From the NCBI GenBank assembly GCA_002011035.2, contig MTLY02000003.1:384001-448000 (forward strand): DNA of 64,000 nucleotides, in the 5' to 3' direction. The DNA comes from Candidatus Hecatella orcuttiae. Its GTDB lineage: Archaea > Thermoproteota > Bathyarchaeia > Hecatellales > Hecatellaceae. Numbering within the stretch: the stretch's first letter is position 1; each line of letters starts with the position of its first letter. The notes under the pieces were generated by a model, which ran no database searches, was not told where the DNA came from, and saw only the letters and a list, made by a program, of their open reading frames with translations. The translations under genes were made by a program, and so were the position numbers. Positions 3,995 through 46,138 of this stretch are shown in pieces.

Positions 3995-5312
3995 CGCCGA
4001 TATCTATCACGGAAAGCCTCAGGCATTTAACCTTTTTTCCCAGCACCTCGGCGATGCTGGGAGTCGTTCTACCCTCATCCCCGTCCACCAGTTCTTTTAC
4101 ATAGAGGCCGCCTTGACATTTTAGGGTTACTTCAAACCTGCTGTCTGAAAGCTTTTCAGCTTTCAAACTGTAGACCCGCCGCTCTCGCTCCTTGTCTGCT
4201 CTCCGGTGGAGCACCCTCCTGGGTGTGAGCTGTCGGATAACCCTATCTGTGAAGGCTTTTTCCACAGCGTCCAGGTCTTCCTCCGTCAGCCTCTCTGTTG
4301 ACTCTACTAGGAAGCGGTAGACTTTAGGGCTTGCCTCTGCCGCTTTGACCCTTCTGACAGCGTCTTTGCCTGCGAGCTTGAGGTCTAGAACCTCCACCCT
4401 GCCCCCTGCGTTCACCTCCCTCCTAACTCTTTCAAGGTCGATGAAGCGTCTTCGAGGGTTTTTCACCTCCACGACGAAGGGTCTTCCGCTGCCTAAAACC
4501 TGAGCGTCGATGTCTTCGCGGCCTCCTGCGTGGAATTCAGCGCCCTCTCCCTCCGTCAGCTTCAAGATGGGAGCTTCTAGGATTTCTTGAACTGATTCAG
4601 GGTATTTTTTACCTGTGCCCCCGCAGAAGCTACAGCCCTTGCCTCCGCATCTTCGGCAAAGCCAACGGGACTGAGGGATCCCCGTGACCAGTTTCCGGTA
4701 TCGACCTTCAACGAAAAGGGGGTTAGCCTTCAAGGTGAACTCGTTTTTGAAGGGGGAGACTGTGACCACGAGCTCCGGGTTGGCGAAGTCCGCCTGTTTA
4801 CCTGTGAGCTTCGACAGGGTCTTCCCGATTTCCCGGGTGAATTCGCTTTTCATGCTTTCCCCCCACTCCGCCCCGCACCGCGCCCTTACCGAGTCCTCCG
4901 CCTCCAGAAGCTGAGCGGGAATCTTGGCTCCCACCAGAAAGGTGTTGAATTCAAACTCCTTGGCTTTTTCAGCAATCTCCGCTGCGAGCTGGGGGATTTC
5001 TTGAATTTTTCCCCTGCAGAGCTGACATTTCTCTTTTTTCCCCTTTCCTGCTTCAACCCCCAGCCTCCGAAGGGTCTGCGCGGCGGCTTCAAACATGCCG
5101 TGAGCGGCCAGTTTTCTGAGAAGCCTCACCCCGGCTTTATCCTCTGCCTGAATCATGCTGTGGGCCTCTAGGAGGAGGGTGTTTTTCAGCGACCGGCCTC
5201 TCTCCGCATTGTCCATCCCATGGCCTAAGGTGGCGAACTGTCTTCCGAGGCAGTTGTCGCAGAGGCGGTATTCTTCCAGCAGTCTCTGAGCCGCGTCCAG
5301 TATTCCGCCCAC
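3975..5312 (-). CDS. pus10: tRNA pseudouridine(54/55) synthase Pus10
   Basis: LCDNCLGRQF, GRYRKL...QSRW, GREDID, GGLYVKELV. Confidence 0.92.
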   Translation of the reverse strand: MGGILDAAQRLLEEYRLCDNCLGRQFATLGHGMDNAERGRSLKNTLLLEAHSMIQAEDKAGVRLLRKLAAHGMFEAAAQTLRRLGVEAGKGKKEKCQLCRGKIQEIPQLAAEIAEKAKEFEFNTFLVGAKIPAQLLEAEDSVRARCGAEWGESMKSEFTREIGKTLSKLTGKQADFANPELVVTVSPFKNEFTLKANPLFVEGRYRKLVTGIPQSRWLCRRCGGKGCSFCGGTGKKYPESVQEILEAPILKLTEGEGAEFHAGGREDIDAQVLGSGRPFVVEVKNPRRRFIDLERVRREVNAGGRVEVLDLKLAGKDAVRRVKAAEASPKVYRFLVESTERLTEEDLDAVEKAFTDRVIRQLTPRRVLHRRADKERERRVYSLKAEKLSDSRFEVTLKCQGGLYVKELVDGDEGRTTPSIAEVLGKKVKCLRLSVIDIGGEEDEV

Positions 5313-5414
5313 TTCATGTCCCCCGTGAGGGTTTATCCTTCCAGTAGGTTTAGGTGGTGGAGAAATTTAAAGGGTAAAAGAGAAACCCCTCCACCAAGCC
5401 GGCTGGTTTGCTGT

Positions 5415-6644
5415 TTACTGGGAGAAGAGACCTCGAAGGTCCTCTATTTGGCTTAGGAATTCCGCCAAAGACTCCTTGTGAGACTTGTCCAGGTAGCTTC
5501 CATGCTTGCTGAGAGCGGCTCCGAGTTCGTAGAGAAGCCTGCTAAGCCTGCCGATGCCTATGCCGTTTAAGATTAAATCCTGCAGCCGTGCTCCCGTGTC
5601 TATATCCCCGCCCATCCAGCTTTTTTTCCACTTTTTTTCATACTTCTCCAAGGCCTCAGCCGAGCAGTCGCCTTCGCCTAAAGCCTCCGCCGCCACCTCC
5701 GCAGCCAGTTTACCGGAGAAGACAGCTGCCTCGTAGCCTGCTCCATCCATAGGGCAGACGAAACCCGCTGCGTCTCCGACGAGGAGCACGCCGTGAGCGT
5801 AGGTTTTCCCCTGAGGACCGTAAACGGGGACGGTGTGAACAGAGTGCTGGAACACGGTAGCGCCTTGGGTCAGCTTCCTTACTAGGGGGAAGTCCAAGAA
5901 GTTTGAAAGACGGTTTTCAATGCTTTCTTCGAGCACGTCGAGAGCGGAGCCTACTCCCACGCAGAAATCTTCTTTGGACGGGAAAATCCACCCGTAGCCT
6001 TTTGGTGAGATTTTCTCACTGAGGAATATCTTCAACTCTCCGCCATCGTTCTCGTCGCAAAACCTCCGAGTAATCTCCTCCTCAGACAGGAGGTAGGTGT
6101 GCTTGACGCAGAGGGCGAGGGCGTTAAGCGGCCACCTAGACCTGAGGCTTGCTTTCAATGCGACGGTGGAGTTGGAGCCGTCGGCTCCGATGACCACTGA
6201 GGAATAGAATTTCTCTCCCCCCTCAGCCGCCACGCCTACTACGTGGTTCTGTTTGTCGAAGAGCAGGTTCTCGACGAGGGTGGAGGTCTTCAGCGTAGCT
6301 CCTGCAGCCTCCGCAAAGCCTGAAGTCCACCTATCCCAGCTGGGTCTGTGCACGGTGAAGCCGTATTCCCCGTTTCGGCGGCTGAACTTGAGCTCAGTGA
6401 GCTTATCTTCGTGGAGAAAATGGAAGCCCCACTTGGTCATGGCTCTCTCCACCGGGCCTTCCTTCATCCAAGGGAACCTCTGGAATATGCTGATGGGGAG
6501 AAACTCGCCTCCCACGCTTTTGTCGCCGGGCTGCCTCCCCCGCTCTAGGAGGAGAACCTTCAACCCCTTTTCCGCGGCTGTTTTTGCCGCTAGGATTCCA
6601 GAAGGCCCGGCTCCCACCACCACAATGTCGTATTTTTCAGCCAA
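5415..6644 (-). CDS. Geranylgeranyl reductase-family FAD-dependent oxidoreductase
   Basis: VVVGAGPSG, GADG, GYGWIFP, LLVGDAAG. Confidence 0.75.
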   Translation of the reverse strand: MAEKYDIVVVGAGPSGILAAKTAAEKGLKVLLLERGRQPGDKSVGGEFLPISIFQRFPWMKEGPVERAMTKWGFHFLHEDKLTELKFSRRNGEYGFTVHRPSWDRWTSGFAEAAGATLKTSTLVENLLFDKQNHVVGVAAEGGEKFYSSVVIGADGSNSTVALKASLRSRWPLNALALCVKHTYLLSEEEITRRFCDENDGGELKIFLSEKISPKGYGWIFPSKEDFCVGVGSALDVLEESIENRLSNFLDFPLVRKLTQGATVFQHSVHTVPVYGPQGKTYAHGVLLVGDAAGFVCPMDGAGYEAAVFSGKLAAEVAAEALGEGDCSAEALEKYEKKWKKSWMGGDIDTGARLQDLILNGIGIGRLSRLLYELGAALSKHGSYLDKSHKESLAEFLSQIEDLRGLFSQ

Positions 6645-6818
6645 GGTTATGGCTCCGCGAAGGTGAAATTTTTTCGCTTAGAACTAGGATAAGTTTCGAA
6701 TATTAAAACTTAACAGCAACCTCAAAATCTCTGCCTACCAATTAAGTATAGGCAGCCACAGCGGAGGAGCAGCTGCCTTCTAGGAGTTTGACCGACCTCG
6801 AAGGGAAGGCTGAAGGCG

Positions 6819-16395: not shown

Positions 16396-17625
16396 TTAAA
16401 TTCCAGCAGCTATTTTGGCTTCTGTCCATGCTTCAAAGTATTTGTCCCATATCGGTGGATCTGGGTGTTCCCAGTTGTAGAAGATTCCTTTCTCCAACAG
16501 GTCTTCAGGTTTATCCAATCCCAACAGTTTTATTATTTCGGGGTCCGCCAGTTCCCATCCTTTTACATTCGTGGATGCGTAATAGTAAACGTTGGTCAGA
16601 AATTGGCCTGTTCGAGGATCTAAGAAGGCATTTATGTAGTCATGGGCAAGCTCGTAGGTTCCTCTTTCTGGAGAGCCTTCTCCCACATTCATAGCGTAAG
16701 GCCAGATGAACAGAGCCTCTCCCGTCCTGTAATTGGCTCCAGGTGTAAGCCCCAGATAGACCACGTCCAAACCTTCAGCCAACCCTGCAGCGTACAATTC
16801 CGTCCACATGGTTGCAATGGCTACTTCGCCTTCTTTAAGACTTGCAAAAAGCTCATACTGGTCATCGTAGATAATTTTTGCTTGCTTAAACGCTTTCATC
16901 ACCGCATCTTTCCAAGCTTCTATCTGGTCATCAGTAGGATTTTTGAACTCTTCCACTGTAAACAATGCGTCGAACATAGGCCCAGCAATTTCAGAAGGAG
17001 CATCGTACATGGCCGTTCCTACCTCTGCATATTTTGGATCCCACAAGCACGACCAACTGTCAGGCTCTGGTAATCCCGCATCCCGGATTAGGTCTCTTCT
17101 GTAAATAATCGAAGTCATTCCCATATCCGTCACCAGCATATAGAGTTGGCCGTTGTGTCTGCCGTATTTTTCAACTAGTGCTTTAAAGAAAGGATGTACA
17201 TCTTGGTAGTTAGGTATCAAATCTAAGTCTATCGGCTCTAGCGCATCAAACTCCAAATATCTCTTGAAATGAGTCCAATAGCCGCCGAAGTTGGAGGCGT
17301 CAAACCTATCTCCAATCGCTATCCTTGCCAACGCTGAATCTTCATCAGGAAAAATGACGTGCGATACCTTTACATCCGGATGTTTTTCCCTAAACGCAAG
17401 CCACAGTTCTTCAACATCATACCCAGCCCACGTCCAAACTATTATCTCATTAGCTTTCGGTGGTGGTACTGGAGTTGGCGTAGGAGTTGGTGCGGGTGTC
17501 GGGGTTGGGGCTGGAGCGGGCCTTGTGGCCTGCCAAGCGGCGTAGCCGCCCACACCGGCCACCACCGCCGCAACCACGGCGGCGATGCCGTATTTCAGGG
17601 CCTTTCTTCGAGATTCATTACTCAT
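16396..17625 (-). CDS. PotD/PotF-like polyamine ABC substrate-binding protein with Tat-like signal and Pro/Thr linker
   Basis: SRRKALKYG plus hydrophobic helix, PAPTPT repeats, WTWAGY, PDSWSCLWDPKY, AHDYINAFLDP. Confidence 0.8.
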   Translation of the reverse strand: MSNESRRKALKYGIAAVVAAVVAGVGGYAAWQATRPAPAPTPTPAPTPTPTPVPPPKANEIIVWTWAGYDVEELWLAFREKHPDVKVSHVIFPDEDSALARIAIGDRFDASNFGGYWTHFKRYLEFDALEPIDLDLIPNYQDVHPFFKALVEKYGRHNGQLYMLVTDMGMTSIIYRRDLIRDAGLPEPDSWSCLWDPKYAEVGTAMYDAPSEIAGPMFDALFTVEEFKNPTDDQIEAWKDAVMKAFKQAKIIYDDQYELFASLKEGEVAIATMWTELYAAGLAEGLDVVYLGLTPGANYRTGEALFIWPYAMNVGEGSPERGTYELAHDYINAFLDPRTGQFLTNVYYYASTNVKGWELADPEIIKLLGLDKPEDLLEKGIFYNWEHPDPPIWDKYFEAWTEAKIAAGI

Positions 17626-17902
17626 TTTTATATATCTCTCCTAAAAGCGGCTGTTTATTATTCCGGTTCAGATTATATATAAATATTACGGTTTACTGAA
17701 CGATGTTGCTAAGATTTTTTGTTGGGCCGGATTTGCAAGCGTAATTTGCGGACTGCAGGGGTCAAGCTGATTGCTTCATGATTTAGGATCCTATTTATAA
17801 GTCTCTCTGTCACTGTAGAAACCCGGAAAACTCTCGACTAGGTTTTTCTGATTTTTCTAACTAAAGTCAACTTCTCAAATGCCTAGCTTTGAGTTGGCGT
17901 CT

Positions 17903-18679
17903 TCAGGCTGATATTCTTTCGATCATCCTCATCAAAAACGCAAGTCCGATGGCAAAAGACAATATGATGGAGGACATAGCCGTTAAGATTGGCACGAATT
18001 TTGGCAGTTTCATCAGCAAAGAGTAAATATACACAGGCGCTGTTTGCTCTGTCCCGGCAAGGAAAACCGCGAGGGCAACATCTTCCCACGAGATGATAAA
18101 GGCTAAAATGGCGGCCACCGCCACTCCTGGCATTATAAGAGGCAACGTTACTTTCCGAAAAGTGGTGAATTTACCCGCGCCCAAATCCATGGCAGCCTCT
18201 TCAAGACTTATGTCAAGAGCTATGAATCTGGAGGTTAAGACCAAGGTAGTGTAGGGTATGGTGATTAGAATATGACCTATAATGATGACTATTAACGATG
18301 GGTTTACCCCCATTTTTAATAAAAAGGACATCAAACTGAAACCCATGATGATGTAAGGTGTCACCATGGGCATCAGCAAGAGCCCTGTGAAAATTTTTTT
18401 CCCAGCGAAGTTTGTGCGCGCTAGTGCATACCCTCCGCAGATTCCGAAGATTACAGCGGCTCCCGTGGTAACGGAAGCGACCATGAGGGAGTATTTAACG
18501 GCATTTATAGCGGCTGGAAATCGGAGAAGTTCGATGTACCATTTGAGGGTGGGGAAGTTTCTTAAGGGCAGAGTAGAAGTTTCGTTGAGGGATAGCAGTA
18601 ACAGTATGGCGATGGGGAAAAATGTGAGTATCAACAAGAATCCAAGTACGACAATGAACATTATACTCGATTTCGTCAT
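17903..18679 (-). CDS. Polyamine ABC transporter permease (PotC-like)
   Basis: TLKWY, LEEAAMDLGA EAA loop, about 6 TM segments. Confidence 0.85.
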   Translation of the reverse strand: MTKSSIMFIVVLGFLLILTFFPIAILLLLSLNETSTLPLRNFPTLKWYIELLRFPAAINAVKYSLMVASVTTGAAVIFGICGGYALARTNFAGKKIFTGLLLMPMVTPYIIMGFSLMSFLLKMGVNPSLIVIIIGHILITIPYTTLVLTSRFIALDISLEEAAMDLGAGKFTTFRKVTLPLIMPGVAVAAILAFIISWEDVALAVFLAGTEQTAPVYIYSLLMKLPKFVPILTAMSSIILSFAIGLAFLMRMIERISA

Positions 18680-18680
18680 T

Positions 18681-19604
18681 TTAGAGACTCTCCATCAGCT
18701 TCCTGAAGCCGATTCTCCGATAAAGTAGGAAGACCGCTATGAAAGTTATAATCAGCAGATAAACAGTGAAAGCCGCGGCTACATCCCACCTAAACCCCTT
18801 GAGGAAGAAATCGTAGATCAGGTTTCCAAACAATATTCCGGTTCTGCCTCCCACTACTGCTGGAGCTATGAATTCTCCCATCGTCGGAATAAACACGAAC
18901 AAAACTGCTACGAAAACTCCGGGTAGACTCAGGGGAAAAGTAACTTTTAGGAATGTTGTAATGGGCGAAGCGCCCAGATCGTCTGAAGCCTCCAGCAAAA
19001 CTCTGTCTATTTTTTCCAGCGACACGAATATCGGCAGAATCAACCAGGGAAACCATGTGGCAGTTAAAACCAGCCAAACAGAAAATAGGTTGTACCCCAA
19101 TAGTTTGATGGGCTCGCTTATTAAGCCGAAATATAGGAGCAATGAATTTATTACTCCTGTGCTGCCTAACATCAACCGCCAAGCCAGCAATATCAGCATA
19201 TAGGTGGCAAAATAAGGCGCTTGAAACAGGAATAGAACAGTATACTTATTTTTTAAAACTCTAAAGGCTATAAAATAGGCTACAACATACGCGAACAAAA
19301 CGGATGAAGCTGTAACGGTAACCGCTATAAAAAACGTTCGAAGTAGAAGTCTGGCATAATCCGTTCGGATGAATAGTTTTGCATAATTGCTGAGTACGGG
19401 AAAATTAACAACAGTTCTTGTCACAGGACTTAATTCAGCGAAGCTCAAGATTAACACTGAAAAAACAGGAATGAAAAATACGATGATAATCCATAAGTAA
19501 GTGGGTAGAACTAGCAAAAGATCTTTTAACCTTGAGTTGGTCTGTGCCGTGAAAAAATTCCGGAAAGATTTCTTTATACTCATATTACCACTTCCGTTCG
19601 ACAA
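18681..19604 (-). CDS. Polyamine ABC transporter permease (PotB-like)
   Basis: GVINSLL, LLEASDDLGA, FPLSLPG, VFIPTMGEF. Confidence 0.85.
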   Translation of the reverse strand: MSNGSGNMSIKKSFRNFFTAQTNSRLKDLLLVLPTYLWIIIVFFIPVFSVLILSFAELSPVTRTVVNFPVLSNYAKLFIRTDYARLLLRTFFIAVTVTASSVLFAYVVAYFIAFRVLKNKYTVLFLFQAPYFATYMLILLAWRLMLGSTGVINSLLLYFGLISEPIKLLGYNLFSVWLVLTATWFPWLILPIFVSLEKIDRVLLEASDDLGASPITTFLKVTFPLSLPGVFVAVLFVFIPTMGEFIAPAVVGGRTGILFGNLIYDFFLKGFRWDVAAAFTVYLLIITFIAVFLLYRRIGFRKLMESL

Positions 19605-19624
19605 TGGCCTCCAATGGATTTAGC

Positions 19625-20680
19625 CTAGGTTATCAACTTGGAGTCTTTCTTATTCCAACCGATTTTTACCTTCTCCCCAATTCCAAAAATGCCTTCCATG
19701 CCGGGACTGGGCGCTACAACTGAAATGGAGGAACCATTTTCCAGCAAAACTCTGTAGGTGACGACTCGGCCCTGATAATAGGCCTCTTTAACTTCTCCAG
19801 CGAATATATTATCCAACGCGTTTAACTTTCTTCCGATGAAAATTTTCTCCGGCTTGATGGAGACTAAGACTGATCCTTTGGATAGCTGACACTCAGGTGT
19901 GACGGTGATTTTCCCCAGATTATCGACTTCCACTGCCCCATTCTCATACCTCCCTTTGAAAACGTTAGTTCCCCCAATAAAATTAGCCACAAACTCAGAG
20001 TTAGGCTGTTCATAAATCTCGATAGGCGAGCCGATCTGCATGATCTTTCCGGCTTTCATTACGGCTATTTTGTCGGACATCGTTAGAGCTTCTCCTTGGT
20101 CGTGAGTGACGTAGATGAAGGTAGTGCCGACTTCACGTTTAATTCTCTTCAGCTCGACAATCATTTCCTCCCTAAGTTTTAGATCTAATGGTCCCAAAGG
20201 TTCGTCTAGAAGCAATACAGTTGGTTTATTAACCAAAGCCCTTACAATGGCAATTCTTTGTTTTTCGCCGCCGCTCAATTGGCTTATTTTCCTCTTTTCA
20301 TAGCCTGGAAGTCTAACGAGGTCTAACATTTCTTTAACTCTTGCTTTGATTTCGTTTTCCGGTATTTTTTTTATTTTTAATCCGAATGCTATATTTTCAT
20401 AAACGTTGAGGTGAGGGAATAGAGCTAAGCTCTGAAAGACTAGGTTTGTAGGCCTCTTAAAGGGGGGTACATCCGCCATAGGTTCTCCTTCGATGAGTAT
20501 CTCCCCTTCGGTTGGCTTCTCAAAGCCGCTGATCATTCTGAGTATAGTAGTCTTTCCACATCCGGAGGGCCCTAAGAGAGAAAAAAATTGTCCCTTTTCC
20601 ACTTGAAAGGAAACATCGCTAACTGCAACAACATCTCCGAATTTCTTAGTTACGTTTTTCAGTTCAACATCGATCTTCAT
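19625..20680 (-). CDS. Polyamine ABC transporter ATP-binding subunit (PotA-like)
   Basis: GPSGCGKT, LSGGEKQR, LLLDEP, VTHDQ.EA, TOBE-like tail. Confidence 0.9.
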   Translation of the reverse strand: MKIDVELKNVTKKFGDVVAVSDVSFQVEKGQFFSLLGPSGCGKTTILRMISGFEKPTEGEILIEGEPMADVPPFKRPTNLVFQSLALFPHLNVYENIAFGLKIKKIPENEIKARVKEMLDLVRLPGYEKRKISQLSGGEKQRIAIVRALVNKPTVLLLDEPLGPLDLKLREEMIVELKRIKREVGTTFIYVTHDQGEALTMSDKIAVMKAGKIMQIGSPIEIYEQPNSEFVANFIGGTNVFKGRYENGAVEVDNLGKITVTPECQLSKGSVLVSIKPEKIFIGRKLNALDNIFAGEVKEAYYQGRVVTYRVLLENGSSISVVAPSPGMEGIFGIGEKVKIGWNKKDSKLIT

Positions 20681-20796
20681 CTTATCGGACCATTACTGAT
20701 ATATACAGGAAGAAGAATATAAAAATAATCGGTCAAGAAAAAGGCCAAAACATGGAAAGATTAAAACAAACTATGTTCCATTAGTGTTTATGAAAA

Positions 20797-22185
20797 GTGG
20801 AGGATACGCCTCATATGATTCTTTCGTTAGATGAAATTTATAGGAGGACTGAAGATGGTCCGATAGTGGAGGAGGAATATTTCGACAAAAAGCTTTTGCC
20901 CAGAAAACTTCGAGAACTAGCAAAGGAATATGATATTAATTACAATCCGGAAGAGCCCGTTCCAACTGACGACAAGTTAGCTGACGACGTTTTTGAGGCG
21001 GGGAAAAAGTTACTGTGTGATGTAGGTATTCTGTGTGTGGACACAGGTAGGTTGATAAAGTTCTCTGAGGATGAAATTAAAGAAGGACTTAAAGCAGCTC
21101 CAAATAAAATAACCATCGGGCAAGGTGAGAGATCCCGAGAAATAACTGAGAGAAAAGCAGAAGACAAAAAGATACCTTGGCTTGTTCCCGGCCCCAGCGG
21201 AATGCCTATATCAGAGGACTTGGCTAGCGTGATAGCTCAATCCATCGTTCAAGAACCGTTAGCAGAAGGTTACTGGACTCCAACTATTACGAAATATGGA
21301 GGGATGGAGGTAAAACTGCATTCTCCGTTGGAAGTTCTTGCATCAAGATATGAAATTATATCGGCCAAGGAGGGAGTCAGAAAGGCTGGTAAAGAAGGGC
21401 TTCCCATTGTTGGAGGAATGACAGGGTTAAGTCCAGCTGGATTCATCGCTTCTATATTTAATGGAGGATTTACGAGAGGGGACTGTCTTCTCGTAAGCTG
21501 CATGAACGAGTTGAAAATCAACTACGATATCATGACGAAAGTATGGTTCGTTTCAAAATGTAGCGACGTAAACCTGATGTATGATGCCACTCCTCTATTA
21601 GGCGGAATCGCAGGTGGACCGGAAGGCACTGCTTTAGTCTCAGTTGCTCAGGAAATAGAATGCCTGTTGCTGGGAGCAGACCTAAGCGGTGGTAACTCAA
21701 TCGATATTTGGTCTGGAACAAGCTCAGGCAGGAAGACCATGTGGGCCTCTAATTTATTCTTGAACGCCATGAACCGGAACGTCAACGCAATAGAGTATTG
21801 CTACCACTTTGCCGCAGCAGGACCTTGCACAGAAATGCTTCTCTATGAGGGGGCAGCGAAAACCATAAGTGTGGTGGCTGCAGGATACGATTTTCACTGT
21901 GGTCCTTTGGCCTTGAGAGCTGGGAAGGAAGATTACATTTCTCCGTTAGAATTTAGGCTCAGCTGCGAAGTCGCCCATGCCATGGCTGGAATTAAAAGGG
22001 AAAATGCCAATTACTTGATAAAAGAATTATTAGCAAAGTTCGAAGATAAAATTCAAAAACCGCCTCTTGGTAAAAGCTTTACCGAGTGTATGGACTTAAC
22101 TACGCTTCAGCCTTCCAAAGAATGGCAGGCTATCTACGAGAAAGTGAAAAAAGAATTAGAAGACTTGGGAATAAAATTCAAATGA
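20797..22185 (+). CDS. mtmB: MtmB-family monomethylamine:corrinoid methyltransferase homologue lacking pyrrolysine
   Basis: VPTDD.LADDVFEAG, GI.C.DTGRLIKF.EDEI, AGPCTEM, GKSF.EC.D; uninterrupted 462 aa, Val codon GTT (21409-21411) at the aligned Pyl site. Confidence 0.85.
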   Translation: MEDTPHMILSLDEIYRRTEDGPIVEEEYFDKKLLPRKLRELAKEYDINYNPEEPVPTDDKLADDVFEAGKKLLCDVGILCVDTGRLIKFSEDEIKEGLKAAPNKITIGQGERSREITERKAEDKKIPWLVPGPSGMPISEDLASVIAQSIVQEPLAEGYWTPTITKYGGMEVKLHSPLEVLASRYEIISAKEGVRKAGKEGLPIVGGMTGLSPAGFIASIFNGGFTRGDCLLVSCMNELKINYDIMTKVWFVSKCSDVNLMYDATPLLGGIAGGPEGTALVSVAQEIECLLLGADLSGGNSIDIWSGTSSGRKTMWASNLFLNAMNRNVNAIEYCYHFAAAGPCTEMLLYEGAAKTISVVAAGYDFHCGPLALRAGKEDYISPLEFRLSCEVAHAMAGIKRENANYLIKELLAKFEDKIQKPPLGKSFTECMDLTTLQPSKEWQAIYEKVKKELEDLGIKFK

Positions 22186-22246
22186 CCTTTGTATAAGGGG
22201 CGGTCAAAGAAAGTAGCAGGCTTGTCGCGATGCCGCTGTTTCTGGT

Positions 22247-23590
22247 TTACGAACCCCGTATATTTTTGAGAGTGTCATAAGTAGCCTGTATGGTCTTTTG
22301 TATATCTTCCGGCTCATGCATCGCCGAAACCATCCACTCCTCAAACCATGCTGAACCGCTCGGTATTATTCCTCTATTCAACATGTTGATCCAGTATTTA
22401 TTCCACATCGCCGCGTCGCAAGCTGAAGCTTCTCTGTAGTTTTTTGGAACCTTGTCCAATCCGAAGAAGATGCATCCCATCATGGTGCATCTGCCCACAG
22501 CGGCTTTTATACCTGTATCTGCTATGGCGTCTACAACTCCCTTGTACAACTCCTCGCCAAGGTTGTTAATTTTCGCATAGGCATTAGAGGTTAATACCTT
22601 TTTCAGGCAGGCTAAGCCTGCAGCTGTTGAAAGAGGATTGGCGTTATAGGTTCCGTAGTGCACAACACCGCCCAAAGGAGTTATCATCTCCATGTATTCT
22701 CTCTTTCCGCCGAACGCGGCCAGAGGTGATCCGCCGCCGATGGCTTTGGCGAAAGTTACCAAGTCGGGTTCAATACCGTAGAGTTGGCTTCCGCCCCCCT
22801 CAGCTAGATTGCATCCTGTCTTAACTTCATCCAATATTAACAAAATGCCATATTCATCGCAAAGCCTTCTAACTTCCCTGAAATAGTCTTTTTCCGGGGT
22901 TATGATCCCGCTGTTGGTAAGCACAGGCTCGGTTACTATCGCCGCAACTTCGTTTTCATGCTTTTTCAACACTCTTTCCAAGCCGTCGGCATCGTTAAAG
23001 TGAACCACCAAGGTCTGTTCGACGTTCTCCTTCGGTGTGCCCAGCGAGTCGGGAGTGGATGCAGGGTTATGTATCGATCCTAACAGGATGCGTCTTCTGG
23101 GTTTATCGCTTATCAGCAGCACATCGTTTGCTCCATGATAGGAGCCCTCCATCTTAACCACCTTAGTCCTCCCTGTGATTCCTCTGGCAAGCCTAACGGC
23201 ATAGAAAGTTGCTTCCATTCCCGTGTTCGCAAAGCGGAGCATCTCAACATACGGGTACCTTCTCATTATCTCTCTCGCCAATTCATCGGCCCCTTCCCCT
23301 TGAAATCCCAGCAACGTCCCCCGCTCCGCCTGCTCTTTTATCGCTTCAACTATGATGGGGTTAGCGTGACCAGCAGTCATGGCTCCGTAGGCCAGACAAT
23401 GGTCTACATACTCTCTTCCGTCTAAGTCCCATAGCTTGCCGCCCTTTCCCCTTGCCATGTAAAGCGGATAGGGCTTAAAGAATTGGATAGCTGTATTTAC
23501 TCCTCCAGGAATAATCTGAGATAGTTTTTCGAAAAACGCCTTTGAAGCTGGGGTGTTTTTAATATATATATCCTCTTCAGCCAATGCCAC
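22247..23590 (-). CDS. Class III PLP-dependent aminotransferase (GSA-aminomutase-like)
   Basis: IPGGV, DLDGREYVD, GSYHG, LILDEVKTG, TFAKAIGGG (PLP lysine), GTYNANP. Confidence 0.85.
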   Translation of the reverse strand: MALAEEDIYIKNTPASKAFFEKLSQIIPGGVNTAIQFFKPYPLYMARGKGGKLWDLDGREYVDHCLAYGAMTAGHANPIIVEAIKEQAERGTLLGFQGEGADELAREIMRRYPYVEMLRFANTGMEATFYAVRLARGITGRTKVVKMEGSYHGANDVLLISDKPRRRILLGSIHNPASTPDSLGTPKENVEQTLVVHFNDADGLERVLKKHENEVAAIVTEPVLTNSGIITPEKDYFREVRRLCDEYGILLILDEVKTGCNLAEGGGSQLYGIEPDLVTFAKAIGGGSPLAAFGGKREYMEMITPLGGVVHYGTYNANPLSTAAGLACLKKVLTSNAYAKINNLGEELYKGVVDAIADTGIKAAVGRCTMMGCIFFGLDKVPKNYREASACDAAMWNKYWINMLNRGIIPSGSAWFEEWMVSAMHEPEDIQKTIQATYDTLKNIRGS

Positions 23591-24033
23591 GTAAATTCAC
23601 CGTTTTCATTTAACAATCGATGTTTATTTAACATTTTCGACAGGGGGTAGAGGCGGGTCTTTTATTTAATTTTTCAGTTAAAAGGCATCGTCTATGTGCC
23701 GCAATTAATTTATTTCTATTCATAACAAAAATAGGCTCTCTCTTTACCAATTTGCCTTTTATCTTGTCTATACCATCAATTTTCTACTTAGAACTGTGCA
23801 GCTTGATGCATATCTCGGCATAAGTCAATGGACAAACTCCCCTTAAACAACAAGCATTGAGAAAAATATCAAACCTAACTTCAAGATAGACAACAGACTC
23901 CGAATAATTTTTTGGTTAAATTTCTCTCAAAGAAGAAAGGGGGAGGTAATTTGTTAACCCTGCGCATTGCTGAGCTTCATTTCATTTGATCTGCCTGCGG
24001 TGTTGGCAGGATTTTTGATTTGTCGGAGACTGC

Positions 24034-25440
24034 TCAAACTTTCGAGAGTTTCTCGAGGCGTTCTACACAATTAATTTTGATGCCGAGCAGTTCAGCGATC
24101 CTAACTTTAGCTTCGAGTCCTTTCGCTGCACCCGGTAAACCAGTTATAACACCGATGTCAAGTTTTTCCCTAAGCTTTCTCATAGTAAACTCATCACAAA
24201 GCTCTATTGAGGAGACACCTAGCTTTTTAGCGACGTAATCCTTCGCTTCAGGTAGTCTCATTTTCTTTTGCAACTGCATCCTACCAATCAGGTCGCCTGA
24301 TGTTCTGATGCTGCCTATGCCACCGGCTACCAGATGCCCAATGGGCATTCCAATGCAGTCTCCGACACCCACCTAAATGCCATCGACGCCGGCTATCTCG
24401 ATCATAGCTTTGTTCGCTCTAGTTACTGTATCCAACGGTGGTGTTTCTAACATGGGCACGCCGCCTACACCCATTCCCATGTTGGGGTGAACAGGGATAG
24501 TCGCTTCTCTCACGCATGCCTTGGTAAACGTAACCGCCCTGGAGAGATTCCATGGGAAAGTGAGGTGGGGTTTTGTATTTATCACAGGTCCAAATATGTC
24601 GACACCCGCTTTTTCCGCTACTTTAAGTTGTTGATGCGGCCACATTCCAGCCAAACGTTCTCCTGCATATTTCAATTCCGTGTGAAATCCGTGTACAGCC
24701 TCGGTAGCCATACCCATCTGGACAGCTAGGTCGGGGTACACCTTTTTCAATGACTCTGTAGCCGTAAGGGCTGCATAAAAGTCAGGATCTCCCGCCGCTC
24801 CTACTGTATCGATATTTATTCCATCCACGCCTACTCTTCTGAGATGTTTAGCTACATATATTATGGCATCATGACATTCTCGAGCAGCGCCCTCCATAGA
24901 TTTCCTCGCTTCGTCGTTCTTTCCTTCTCTGATCAGAGAGATCGGTTCAGGCCATTGACCATCAGGCTTATAGAAATAGCCTAAGTTGGGCATAGCCATG
25001 AATTCTAGAGGACTGATCGACGTGTGCAGAGTATTGTGGATAACATTCGCCAAATAGCTCACTATTACCTTTGCAGGCTTAAAGCTTCCATCCGATTCAG
25101 GAAATTGTAGTATATCAAGTCCAAGCACCCTTTCAGACAGCGCTCCTTGAGCAATGGAACGTTCAATCGGCATACCTAATCCACTAGTGCCAGAGTCAAT
25201 CCAGAAAGTCGAGCCTCCTGCATCAGCGGACAGGACGACCTCGCATCCATGTTTTACAGCCACAACCTTATTGGCGTCGATGATAATTTCATATAATGTT
25301 TCCAGATCTTCGCCGGTTAATTCGGGTATTTTCGCCCTTTCTGCAGCGTCTTTTGAACCCAATTCTAGGTCGTCTTTGATCTGTTTACCCGTCATGGTGA
25401 TCAGTCTACCATCGCCTCTTCTCGTCAAATGTTCTGGCAT
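24034..25440 (-). CDS. mtbB: Dimethylamine:corrinoid methyltransferase MtbB with in-frame amber (pyrrolysine) codon at 24373-24375
   Basis: Two abutting in-frame ORFs join as ...[22 protein letters not shown]...; TAG is codon 356 of a 468-aa product ending at TGA 24034; SD AGGAGGTGA upstream. Confidence 0.92.
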
Positions 25441-25476
25441 ACGTTCTCACCTCCTTTCTATTTTTATTTGTGAGCA

Positions 25477-26127
25477 TCATTTTTTTAGAAGGCAAGTGCG
25501 GGATGCAAGGAGTCTTTTAGCTTTAACTACAGCATCCATTGCGTCGGCACCCCATTCGTCGGCGCCGATCTCTTTTGCATGCAATTCGGTTGTTGCTCCT
25601 CCGCCCACCATTACTTTAACGTCATCACGAACTCCTGCTTCCTTCAGAGCATCAATTACCTCTCTTTGGGCGATGGCGGTTGTGGTCATGAGAGCGGAAC
25701 AACCTACAAATGCGGGTTTGTGCTTTTTAACTGCCTCTACAAATTTTTCAGCAGCAACATCTCGACCTAGATCGATGACATCGAATCCTTGAGCTTCCAG
25801 CATCGTGGCCACTATACTCTTACCGATGTCATGAATGTCGCCTTCAACTGTACCGATTATGAACTTGGCTTTTTCACCTCTTTTCTTCCTAGGCACTTTT
25901 TTAAGCAAAACGTCCGCAACCTTCTTGATGGCCTCGGCAGAAAGAACTACTTGTGGAAGAAATATCTCTGACCTACCGTATAGATCTCCTACCTGCCTGA
26001 TAGCCTCAGAGGCATGGTCCAACGCCCTTAAAGGTTCAATACCTGCTTTCAGACAAGCCTCAGCGATTTTAACAGCGCCCTCAACATCTTGATTTAAGAT
26101 CGCATTATAGAGCTTATCTAGTTCCAA
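25477..26127 (-). CDS. mtbC: Methylamine corrinoid protein (MtbC-like)
   Basis: B12-binding GTVEGDIHDIGK, SALMTTT, VMVGG; directly upstream of mtbB. Confidence 0.88.
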   Translation of the reverse strand: MELDKLYNAILNQDVEGAVKIAEACLKAGIEPLRALDHASEAIRQVGDLYGRSEIFLPQVVLSAEAIKKVADVLLKKVPRKKRGEKAKFIIGTVEGDIHDIGKSIVATMLEAQGFDVIDLGRDVAAEKFVEAVKKHKPAFVGCSALMTTTAIAQREVIDALKEAGVRDDVKVMVGGGATTELHAKEIGADEWGADAMDAVVKAKRLLASRTCLLKK

Positions 26128-26520
26128 AATTATGCACCCCCTACTTTTTTATATTAAAGTTTTTTTTAAACATAATGTTTCACCCTCTTTTTGGATCTTT
26201 ATTTCAAAATCACTAGCATCTGTCTTCACTTTACAACTTGTTATCGCGGATGTAGCAAATAATTCATTAGCCTACACCGCGGCCTGAAAATATCACTTCT
26301 ACATACTTATCGATGTAGTCCCCTAATTTAGTGGTGTTCATCATAGTCTCGTTGAGTTTTCTCGATCAAAAAATAAGTGAAACGAGTTTTCGGTCTTCTC
26401 GAGGAAGTACGGATATGGTTAAGAATCATAATTCGGCGAGAAAAGGAGTTCCTGTCGGCAGTTTCGCTGGAGAAAAGCATGTCGCCTCAATAATAAGTGG
26501 CAAGGAACTTTTACTAATTA

Positions 26521-29274: not shown

Positions 29275-30450
29275 TTATATTTTTGACAACTCTTTTTCTC
29301 TCAGGATTAGTACGGCTCCAGTGAACTGGTTGTCTTGATTTTCGATGGGGGTAGTGTAAATGAACGTTCTCAGAGGGCTTCCTCCTTTCTTCAGGAACTC
29401 AAATTCATGAACTTCATCGAACCTATGTTTCCGCCTGTTTTTTATGCTATGGAGAATTTTTCCCCATCTCTGACTGCAGAACTCCTCAAGATTCTTGCCC
29501 ACCATCTCCTTTGATGTGTATCCGAGCATCTCAGCAGTCCTTGGGCTGACATATGTAGTGTTGAACTCTGCGTCTACAAGCCATAAGCCTGTCTCTCCTT
29601 TCATGGCTGACGTCCTCTTTGGGGGAAGTTTTGTTTTTAACAGGGTATCCACAAGTTTAAAGGGGTCCGCTGAGCTCCACATTTCCTCGAAGAATCTTTG
29701 GTATAGCCTTGTCCAACCTTTGCTGTTCAGCCATATATCTCTACAGCAAGAGTTCGATGGCCATCTTTCCATGTCTATTGCTATTCCGACAATGGTCCAT
29801 TTATCATCAATAATCATCGTGTGAAAGGGGATTCTGGAAATTTGTCTTAACTCTGCAAACTTATTGCAGATTTCAACCTCGCGGATGATTGTCTCGTCAA
29901 CCTCCGTAAGTATCCTCACCGGCATCCTGTGAGAGCATTTTCTTAATATGTCAACGAGACCATGATACTCCGCCAGATAAAGACCTGCCCCTGGCACCAT
30001 GTAGTCTATTTTGTTTTCCGCCGATTTACATAATGCGATCTTTTTACTATAGACTTGTTTCATTCCAGTCAAAATTTGTATGCCTTCTCTTTCTTCTCTC
30101 TCTTCTTCTTTCTCCTCACTTACTGCTTTCAGAGCGTCGACGAGCCTAGCTTTGTTAGATGCTATTCTGTTCACTCTTTCTCTTTCAGCCGCTAATAACC
30201 AATCTACAAGCATCTCAGGTTTAACGGCTTTAAATTTTTTAGGCCGTTCCAATAAAGACTGGATAAGTTCCCGTCCTTCAAGCTTCTTAAGTATGCGGTA
30301 GACTTCAGGCCGAGGGATTCCTGCCCGACGGGCTAACTGGTTTGCGGTTAGGTCTGAGCTATATTTTATTAGTGTAACCAGTACTTTAATGTCGTTTCCA
30401 GATAAGCCGAACTCGCTTAGGTTCTGTACAATTTCTTGTTCTTTACTCAA
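29275..30450 (-). CDS. TrmB-family regulator with C-terminal PAS domain
   Basis: LSEFGLS...GIPRPEVYRILKKLE HTH; PLD-like IIDDK effector domain; PAS-like GLWLVD..TTYVSPRTAEMLGY. Confidence 0.8.
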   Translation of the reverse strand: MSKEQEIVQNLSEFGLSGNDIKVLVTLIKYSSDLTANQLARRAGIPRPEVYRILKKLEGRELIQSLLERPKKFKAVKPEMLVDWLLAAERERVNRIASNKARLVDALKAVSEEKEEEREEREGIQILTGMKQVYSKKIALCKSAENKIDYMVPGAGLYLAEYHGLVDILRKCSHRMPVRILTEVDETIIREVEICNKFAELRQISRIPFHTMIIDDKWTIVGIAIDMERWPSNSCCRDIWLNSKGWTRLYQRFFEEMWSSADPFKLVDTLLKTKLPPKRTSAMKGETGLWLVDAEFNTTYVSPRTAEMLGYTSKEMVGKNLEEFCSQRWGKILHSIKNRRKHRFDEVHEFEFLKKGGSPLRTFIYTTPIENQDNQFTGAVLILREKELSKI

Positions 30451-45460: not shown

Positions 45461-46138
45461 TCACTCTTCGTCAGTTTGGAGACGTACGACGAGGGGTTCC
45501 GCGGGGCTTCTCTCCTCTTTTACCTCAAGTTTCGGATATTCTTGGTTTTGGGGGACGGTTAAAGAGTTTAAGGTGGCTTCTATGTCTCTCTTCTCGTTTA
45601 TCGTGCTGTTGATCACCGATATCAAGTAGTCGCTGGCAAGCTTGTAGGTTTCGTCGCCCAGCTCTCCGGTTTTATGCTGAACCTTGAGGTGGCCTAGAAA
45701 TCTTTCCAAGTTTTTAACATGGTGTTCCAAGTCGGAGATTTTTCTGTTCAGAGACTCTATCAGGTTTTTATGGGCTTCTTCAAGCTTGGTCAAAGAGTCT
45801 TTATATTGCTGGCAAAGTTCTTCGTAGACATGGCTTGGGATCTCCTGGCTCTTCAAAAGCTCATCCAACGCTCGAAAACGACGCTGGGTTAAGTCGTTGT
45901 CTTTTTTGAAGTTTTCCGCTTCAATCTTCCATGAAGGCACTAGAATCAACGTATCGCCTTCGACTATTATCTGCGCTCTGGAGAACTCTTCAAAGCTTCC
46001 TCCTCGGTCAACTCCCACCGAATGAAGCTGCCCATCTGGGTCTAATGTCACACCTACCACGTAGCCTATGTACCGTCTGTAGGTGTCCCTCGCCGGTTTC
46101 CCTATGAACCTTTGAAGGGCTTCATATTGAAGACTCAA
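45461..46138 (-). CDS. cdvA: CdvA-like cell division protein
   Basis: N-terminal PRC-barrel-like FIGKPARDTYRRYIGYVVG, long coiled coil, GE motif, C-terminal EPLVVRL strand. Confidence 0.75.
   Translation of the reverse strand: MSLQYEALQRFIGKPARDTYRRYIGYVVGVTLDPDGQLHSVGVDRGGSFEEFSRAQIIVEGDTLILVPSWKIEAENFKKDNDLTQRRFRALDELLKSQEIPSHVYEELCQQYKDSLTKLEEAHKNLIESLNRKISDLEHHVKNLERFLGHLKVQHKTGELGDETYKLASDYLISVINSTINEKRDIEATLNSLTVPQNQEYPKLEVKEERSPAEPLVVRLQTDEE

Follow-up and report, generated by a model that had tools for sequence, protein, structure and literature searches.

The locus described here lies in a 64,000-nucleotide stretch of DNA, referred to throughout as the window, which corresponds to positions 384001-448000 of contig C3 in a genome (G000) of 1.75 Mb that is assembled into three contigs and rated 97% complete. 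At 24034..25440 on the minus strand is mtbB, recognized from its sequence and translation and from the PF09505 and TIGR02368 models as the gene for a dimethylamine:corrinoid methyltransferase. It is 468 codons long, with an ATG start at 25440-25438 and a TGA stop at 24036-24034, both read from the sequence, and it contains one in-frame TAG at codon 356 (24373..24375, minus strand). The list of open reading frames gives it as two entries, 24373..25440 (355 aa) and 24034..24372 (112 aa), which a preliminary description of this DNA had taken to be one gene split in two. The part 5' of the TAG (24376..25440, minus strand) has 355 codons and ends in AGVDGI, and the part 3' of it (24037..24372, minus strand) continues in frame for 112 conserved codons, with a translation that starts VGVGDC and runs through KINC to LSKV. 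Directly upstream on the same strand, at 25477..26127, is mtbC, which codes for the cognate corrinoid (B12-binding) protein (PF02310 and PF02607), and the 36-nt spacer between the two genes (25441..25476, minus strand) carries the Shine-Dalgarno-like sequence GGAGGTGA 7 nt before the mtbB ATG. The best NCBIfam matches of the MtbC protein fall below their cut-offs, with 209 bits for pyl_corrinoid (cut-off 215.3) and 189.6 bits for MtbC (350).

The two pieces of mtbB match consecutive stretches of a single Pfam profile, PF09505 (Dimeth_Pyl), at positions 2-353 and 355-461 of 463, and the downstream piece alone scores 148.6 bits over its stretch (positions 355-461). Read through the TAG, the product matches positions 3-461 of the 463 (E 5.5e-178, 592.7 bits, cut-off 25) and scores 495.8 bits with the NCBIfam equivalog model TIGR02368, for which the cut-off is 369.1. 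We compared it with 23 homologous loci from species-representative genomes of Actinomycetota, Thermodesulfobacteriota, Chloroflexota, Borrarchaeota and other Asgard archaea, and Methanohalophilus, all of which are 42-51% identical to the window copy. A TAG occupies the aligned column in each of the 20 loci that reach the site (the other three end before it), and also in a second mtbB of the same genome, on contig C1, and in the copies of the genomes G127 and G322. Codon 356 is thus at the pyrrolysine position of the family, around which the homologues read DG[ILV]-TAG-VG[VTA]GD. The Methanosarcina context had been given in the preliminary description as VDGI-O-IGVGD, which is close but not exact, since the Methanohalophilus locus (L035), the sole representative of the Methanosarcinaceae in our comparison, reads VDGI-TAG-VGVGD.

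The sequence beyond the TAG has been kept as well as that before it. The 20 homologues are 46-67% identical to the window MtbB after the TAG, as against 42-49% before it, and of the 81 columns that do not vary among 18 full-length homologues, 73 are retained by the window copy, 54 (of 60) ahead of the TAG and 19 (of 21) after it; the C1 copy keeps 78. These columns and the full-length PF09505 match bear out the earlier impression that both halves are intact. Because the 112 downstream codons are conserved like the rest of the gene, they must be translated often enough for selection to act on them.

An assembly error does not account for the TAG, because it is spanned, with no differences, by contigs from two further public runs (X6, record 3, 24034-24880; X7, record 8, 24328-25041); the contigs of four such runs (X6, X7, X8, and X1) have no letters that differ from the window, the TAG being outside the coverage of X8. 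Nor is the split due to chance, because the pieces match consecutive stretches of PF09505 and the TAG column is kept in all 20 loci. The apparent split is therefore confirmed as an annotation artefact in one intact, full-length MtbB gene with a TAG at the pyrrolysine site. The same cut is made elsewhere, as had been anticipated for standard pipelines: the database entry for the window product is a protein of 355 aa (P0002, 100% identical), and the best 120 homologues listed from a collection of 5.8 billion proteins are 341-383 aa long. Because these 120 matches cover only 74-76% of the read-through query, we conclude that gene callers cut the whole MtbB family at the TAG.

The Rfam model of the mtbB PYLIS element (PYLIS_2) matches the segment 24276..24375 on the minus strand, beginning exactly at the TAG, and scores 44.5 bits where the gathering score is 36. 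A fold of 120 nt is no better than that of its shuffles (z = -0.60, with 54 of 200 shuffles folding as well or better), and the match most likely reflects conservation of the coding sequence rather than of an RNA structure. We note that the PYLIS is reported to be dispensable in a passage of a preprint on archaea that use pyrrolysine (10.1101/2024.09.30.615893).

The window itself contains no pylS, pylT, or pylBCD, as had been stated, and its only tRNA is a tRNA-Gly. The pyl genes lie on another contig, C1, where a search of the rest of the genome, as the preliminary description had advised, finds them in the order pylT(CUA)-pylS-pylB-pylC-pylD with the genes for the pyl proteins contiguous. 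All of the proteins score above their cut-offs: PylS has 279 bits with TIGR02367 (cut-off 178), and with the respective NCBIfam models PylB has 436 (348), PylC 355 (248), and PylD 217 (150). A genome devoid of pyl genes, in which mtbB would be a stranded import, had been named as the finding that would overturn the original proposal, and what we find is a complete pylTSBCD set. The tRNA-Pyl(CUA) was located by ARAGORN at C1:349861-349931, 39 nt before pylS. It folds into a structure whose anticodon stem is 6 bp long and whose D-loop is very small. By reading of the sequence, a single base separates the acceptor stem from the D stem, the variable loop is 3 nt, and the discriminator is G; we take all of these features, the short D-loop and the 6-bp anticodon stem included, to be hallmarks of tRNA-Pyl. 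The PylS protein (280 aa) aligns end to end, from residue 8 to 279, with solved PylRS catalytic domains, the best of which is 3dsq (E 4.5e-72). For PylSn there is no TIGR03912 match in the 97% complete genome and no candidate among the small open reading frames of the pyl island, and we have therefore filed the system with the PylSn-less class. PylSn-less classes of PylRS have been described, with Bathyarchaeota among them, in the relevant part of PMC9630628.

The pyl cassette is flanked by further methylamine methyltransferase genes, mttC-mttB (TAG at codon 336) and mtmB-mtmC (TAG at codon 205), and the mttB has a match to Rfam PYLIS_3 of 79 bits. About 7 kb upstream are an Amt-type transporter and the second mtbC-mtbB pair, in which the TAG is at codon 354. 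The accessory genes of the genome include a RamA-type corrinoid activase adjoining an MtaA/MtbA-type gene, six genes of the URO-D/MtaA type, two for MtrH, and one for CdhC.

The assignment of this pyrrolysine-site MtbB to a TACK archaeon, also made in the preliminary description, agrees with the gene content of the window. A CdvA gene at 45464-46138 is found among archaeal informational genes for RpoF, L31e, S19e, TFB, Pus10, and a proteasome subunit, and the nearest CdvA clusters in a protein atlas are labelled mostly Candidatus Bathyarchaeota, which lends partial support to a Bathyarchaeota-like host. There is no match to mcrA in this genome, rated 97% complete, with either of two models (PF02249 and TIGR03256) that do match the controls, and mcrA is present in one relative of the same family, G002.

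Taken together, these features argue that mtbC-mtbB is very probably a functional, pyrrolysine-dependent dimethylamine:corrinoid methyltransferase operon. What has been shown is that the gene is intact, that its TAG is conserved, and that all the machinery is there; that pyrrolysine is inserted, what the substrate is, where the methyl group goes, and how the operon is regulated are inferred. A ribosome reaching the UAG at codon 356 would insert pyrrolysine from the Pyl-tRNA(CUA) encoded by the genome's own pylT, the tRNA being charged by the stand-alone catalytic PylS with pyrrolysine made by PylB, PylC, and PylD, and translation would then go on for 112 codons to yield an enzyme of 468 residues. 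The pyrrolysine is expected to activate dimethylamine so that a methyl group can pass to the Co(I) corrinoid of MtbC, and from there it would move by way of an MtaA/MtbA-type or MtrH-type methyltransferase. Judging by gene presence, the methyl group is most likely channelled into the Wood-Ljungdahl pathway and acetyl-CoA synthase rather than ending as methane, since the genome is without MCR. Competition from the release factor, regulation of pyl cassette expression, or the two together probably limit read-through, and ambiguity at ordinary TAG stops may be tolerated or be limited in the same way.

The window operon differs from the C1 genes in its surroundings and in the sequence of its enzyme. 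The neighbours of mtbC-mtbB in the window include an ABC importer, a Pyl-free MtmB homologue, and a class-III aminotransferase. Third-position GC content (GC3) is 0.39-0.46 in mtbB, mtbC, the Pyl-free MtmB homologue, and the ABC importer, which places them in the 3rd to 9th percentile of open reading frames; the window mtbB is at the 7th percentile of the genome versus the 94th for the C1 mtbB. The C1 methyltransferase genes have a GC3 of 0.70-0.75, and the pyl genes are average. The low GC3 of the window mtbB could mark either a foreign or a weakly expressed gene. A gene for a TrmB-HTH and PAS protein at 29275..30450, on the minus strand and identified by Pfam, is a candidate regulator near the operon. 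A TrmB-PAS gene also flanks the mtbCB of G127, and the proteins share only their HTH region, with 31% identity, so that a regulator conserved between the two operons is unsupported.

The two mtbB copies of the genome are only 57% identical. The window copy has a full-length orthologue in G127, with 66% identity over 467 residues and its TAG likewise at codon 356, and this in turn is 97% identical to a further protein, P0003. In a quick tree, from which P0010 and L032 were left out, both mtbB copies fall within one clade of 14 sequences (SH-aLRT 98), and the window MtbB pairs with P0003 on a long branch with a support of 100. The window MtbB departs from the family at eight of the 81 invariant columns, and five of the departures are non-trivial: Y118G, Y147F, G148M, Y156F, and D192A. 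None of these five residues varies among 24 other MtbBs, which come from bacteria, Asgard archaea, and a methanogen and include the C1 copy and that of G322, and the window copy, G127, and P0003 carry replacements at every one, respectively G/A/A at Y118, F/H/H at Y147, M/I/I at G148, F/F/F at Y156, and A/S/S at D192. The corrinoid protein has diverged along with this type of MtbB, the window MtbC being 68% identical to the MtbC of G127 versus 58% to that of C1. G127 has an mttC-mttB(TAG)-mtbC-mtbB cluster beside pylS and near RamA, and the MtbB encoded there is the only one found in that genome. The sub-lineage thus appears to be functional elsewhere, as the only MtbB type of G127 and as part of a Pyl cluster. 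A pattern built by aligning the window copy with P0003 gave 594 matches in metagenome contigs, none of which was confirmed as a further member. We interpret the window cassette as a second, compositionally atypical mtbCB, here called type B, that has a history of its own.

These observations raise the question of what the window enzyme acts upon, and an unlikely model is that it is a neo-functionalized MtbB-like protein that has kept its pyrrolysine and acts, with a changed substrate pocket, on an amine other than dimethylamine. This would accommodate the replacement of five otherwise invariant residues in all three members, the sub-lineage with its own co-diverged MtbC, the low-GC3 block shared with the ABC importer, the Pyl-free MtmB homologue, and the class-III aminotransferase, and the presence in the pyl island of a canonical mtbB that already serves the genome. 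However, the only MtbB of G127 is of this type and is encoded directly after a Pyl-type mttCB, where the pathway needs a dimethylamine enzyme, and the window MtbB itself scores above the cut-off of the curated MtbB equivalog. There is also no MtbB structure, with no sequence matches in the PDB, by which the five residues could be placed relative to the active site. One elaboration, to which we give similarly little weight, is that the type-B mtbC-mtbB, seen only here and in G127/P0003, was recruited together with the ABC importer and the Pyl-free MtmB homologue for an amine other than free dimethylamine, and would feed a non-methanogenic methylotrophy by the acetyl-CoA pathway. We favor a dimethylamine enzyme with the type-B substitutions.

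A different set of considerations concerns how often the UAG is read through. In a crude, greedily chosen set of 1643 open reading frames TAG ends 456 (27.8%), with TGA at 35% and TAA at 37%. The median in-frame extension beyond the stop is 15.5 codons for TAG, 15 for TGA, and 16 for TAA, and extensions of at least 60 codons follow 78 of 456 TAG, 81 of 579 TGA, and 89 of 608 TAA stops. Because extensions after TAG are no longer than those after TGA or TAA, there is no sign of genome-wide reassignment. We also screened for further Pyl genes among 74 other TAG-ended frames with an extension of at least 60 codons and an upstream part of at least 100 aa. After removal of 25 in which at least half of the extension was covered by a frame in another register, the two halves of the remaining 49, translated with the standard code, were scanned with Pfam, and none of the 49 junctions splits a Pfam family. 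In 23 pairs a family is found on both sides and none is split (a DMRL_synthase repeat consists of two complete domains), and in the other 26 one side or both are without a family at E <= 1e-15. Within the limits of this screen, the genome's only Pyl genes are two copies of mtbB and single copies of mtmB and mttB. An organism in which TAG remains a common stop and occurs internally only in these four methylamine methyltransferase genes fits the published 'recent acquirer' kind of Pyl user.

With TAG so frequent a stop, termination at codon 356 must compete with insertion of pyrrolysine, and a 355-aa product is possible. An extreme version is that the TAG is mostly read as a stop, so that the cell makes chiefly the 355-residue protein and the full-length enzyme only upon pyl induction, if at all. 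We consider this distinctly improbable. It would be in keeping with the ordinary use of TAG as a stop and the lack of any sign of reassignment, with a PYLIS-like stretch that has no fold beyond that of shuffles, and with remarks in the preprint that the release factor may compete with Pyl-tRNA and that some Pyl users that are not recoded switch the system off when methylamines are absent (10.1101/2024.09.30.615893). Against it, conservation of the 112 downstream codons matches that of the rest, which needs translation under selection, and in the form of regulated read-through it overlaps with the explanation we prefer and is not a full alternative to it. We therefore retain read-through at codon 356, regulated or otherwise limited, as the favored interpretation.

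The distribution of the system among relatives is patchy. A search of 40 relatives (13 from the same family and 27 from the same class) finds no MtbB and no PylS above its cut-off, so that with this genome counted each occurs in one of 41. Of 401 genomes sampled evenly across the phylum, three have MtbB, namely this genome and two of the genus g95, and within that genus mcrA is present in all six genomes (in five above the cut-off) and PylS in three. PylS of this genome is 53% identical to that of G322. Brockarchaeota and Culexarchaeia were weighed as the host lineage and set aside, the former because pyrrolysine goes unmentioned in the Brockarchaeota paper and the latter because they have been reported to be without pylSBCD. 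Pyrrolysine is described as sporadic within Ca. Methanomethylicus in a part of the preprint (10.1101/2024.09.30.615893), and we note that the occurrence of PylS in three of the six g95 genomes matches that remark. A stranded or decaying import, either a pseudogene that a nonsense mutation has interrupted or a Pyl gene whose host is unable to decode it, is very improbable, for although the atypically low GC3 and long branch of the window mtbB and the lack of MtbB and PylS in the 40 relatives would suit it, the sole stop falls precisely in the Pyl column, the two halves are both undamaged and conserved, a complete pylTSBCD is encoded in the same genome, and the departures from the consensus are common to a full-length orthologue in another genome.

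Relative to the MtbB of the Methanosarcinaceae, as represented by PF09505 and TIGR02368, the window gene has the same length, a single TAG at about codon 354-356, and an adjacent cognate MtbC. It differs in that identity to the Methanohalophilus protein is only about 48-56%, in the replacement of the five invariant residues, and in a host that is without MCR and in which TAG is free to serve as a stop. The type-B genes of G127, which belongs to an MCR-bearing genus of the same phylum, are alike in having the TAG at codon 356 and the five diagnostic replacements, with MtbB 66% and MtbC 68% identical, but differ in setting: the G127 MtbB is the sole one and is encoded in an mttCB-mtbCB cluster beside pylS, whereas the window copy is the second in its genome, far from the pyl island and next to the ABC importer and the Pyl-free MtmB homologue.

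The use of pyrrolysine with MtmB, MtbB, and MttB in Bathyarchaeota is already known and has been in print since 2017. In the portion of their paper that treats this lineage, Mukai et al. (2017) give a 'Ca. Bathyarchaeota' with SepRS, PylRS, and Pyl-utilizing MtmB, MtbB, and MttB, whose PylSc forms a new clade with that of Ca. Methanomethylicus V1 (PMC5424206). The corresponding passages of Sun et al. (2021) report PylSBCD in representatives of Bathyarchaeia, together with non-methanogenic use of Pyl and high usage of UAG stops in Sifarchaeia (PMC9723677), and in those of Guo et al. (2022) Bathyarchaeota are one of the eight archaeal phyla given as having PylSc (PMC9630628). Our genome shares with the Bathyarchaeota of these three accounts the TACK affiliation, PylRS, PylBCD, Pyl-type MtmB, MtbB, and MttB, and a PylSc of the clade common to it and Ca. 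Methanomethylicus, and the published phylum likewise includes PylSn-less forms; nothing essential differs from what those passages contain. Two MtbB types in one genome and the five diagnostic substitutions are not mentioned in the passages concerned of PMC5424206, PMC9723677, and PMC9630628, supplements apart. The 'Group A' Pyl archaea, recent acquirers as characterized in sections of the preprint (10.1101/2024.09.30.615893), are similar in having the Pyl machinery, TAG usage above 15%, internal TAG only in methylamine methyltransferase genes, and a patchy distribution, although our TAG figure comes from a crude set of open reading frames and theirs from Prodigal, and the two are not directly comparable. 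What is modestly new is that the MtbB of the window, which has its own MtbC, belongs to a divergent sub-lineage that is common to it and the methanogen genome G127.

The current picture of where pyrrolysine occurs is unchanged by this result. It adds a well-assembled example, three contigs that include pylT-pylSBCD and four methyltransferase genes bearing a TAG, and because the split is an annotation artefact of genetic-code expansion the window mtbB should be annotated as a single Pyl-containing enzyme. A Pyl user that is without MCR and in which TAG is still a common stop offers the sharpest setting for a two-way reading of UAG in one cell. The two MtbB types present in this one genome are, in a family without a solved structure, a natural pair for asking what sets substrate use.

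The mtbC and mtbB genes of the window (25477..26127 and 24034..25440, both on the reverse strand) lie in a block spanning positions ~16400-26130, in which the GC content of third codon positions (GC3) is 0.39-0.52, relative to a genome mean of 0.605. Also located within it are an ABC importer, consisting of a substrate-binding protein, permeases and an ATPase with TOBE, a class-III aminotransferase assigned to the glutamate-1-semialdehyde aminomutase subfamily (433.7 bits with NF000818; cut-off, 398), and a Pyl-free MtmB homologue; genes for a ferredoxin and an aldehyde:ferredoxin oxidoreductase follow on the same strand. We note that the block may be an acquired amine-catabolic island.

The MtmB homologue (20797-22185, forward strand) has a full-length match to the Pfam MtmB model, and no NCBIfam model matched it in an NCBIfam profile search. 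It is one of 12 MtmB-family genes in the whole genome of Ca. Hecatella orcuttiae, only one of which carries a TAG; the other 11 are uninterrupted, ten of them being spread over all three contigs (C1, C2, and C3) in addition to the window copy, and at the Pyl column each encodes a standard amino acid (F, Q, G, W, I, P, V, or L). Three of the four MttB-family genes are likewise Pyl-free, and the genome encodes approximately 14 corrinoid proteins.

In genome G127, which belongs to an MCR-bearing genus of the same phylum and shares the type-B mtbB sub-lineage with the window copy, an in-frame stop likewise divides mttB in two (locus L135 on contig C8 of G127, 5242-6729, reverse strand). The 334-aa and 140-aa pieces match positions 31-337 and 361-492 of the MTTB profile, and the gene is flanked by mttC and type-B mtbC-mtbB; the end of this contig carries pylS. 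Closer to Ca. Hecatella orcuttiae, the same-family relative G002 contains a full mcrA (C1:244851-246497; 968.5 bits, above the cut-off), and profile searches of it found neither PylS nor MtbB, whereas Ca. Hecatella orcuttiae has Pyl and MtbB but lacks mcrA. In this family, the distribution of MCR is independent of that of Pyl.

ARAGORN reports only 24 tRNA genes in the whole Ca. Hecatella orcuttiae genome, five of which have irregular anticodon loops, probably because intron-containing or split tRNAs are missed in its bacterial mode.

Five of the 20 homologous mtbB loci (L022, L023, L024, L025, and L034, from Desulfobacterales, Borrarchaeota and other Asgard archaea, and Desulfohalobiaceae) contain a second TAG at codons 458-469, where the remaining homologues end, with the next TAA or TGA a few codons later. 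Judging from these sequences, a single mtbB gene in each locus appears to use TAG both as Pyl codon and as terminator. In Ca. Hecatella orcuttiae itself, pylB has TAG as its stop codon, and the start of pylC lies a few codons further on in that frame (C1:350817-353138); a corrinoid-protein gene likewise stops at TAG and shares its frame with the Pyl-free MttB homologue that follows (C1:125005-127107). If Pyl-tRNA reads the TAG codons of pylB and of this corrinoid-protein gene, fusion proteins would result.
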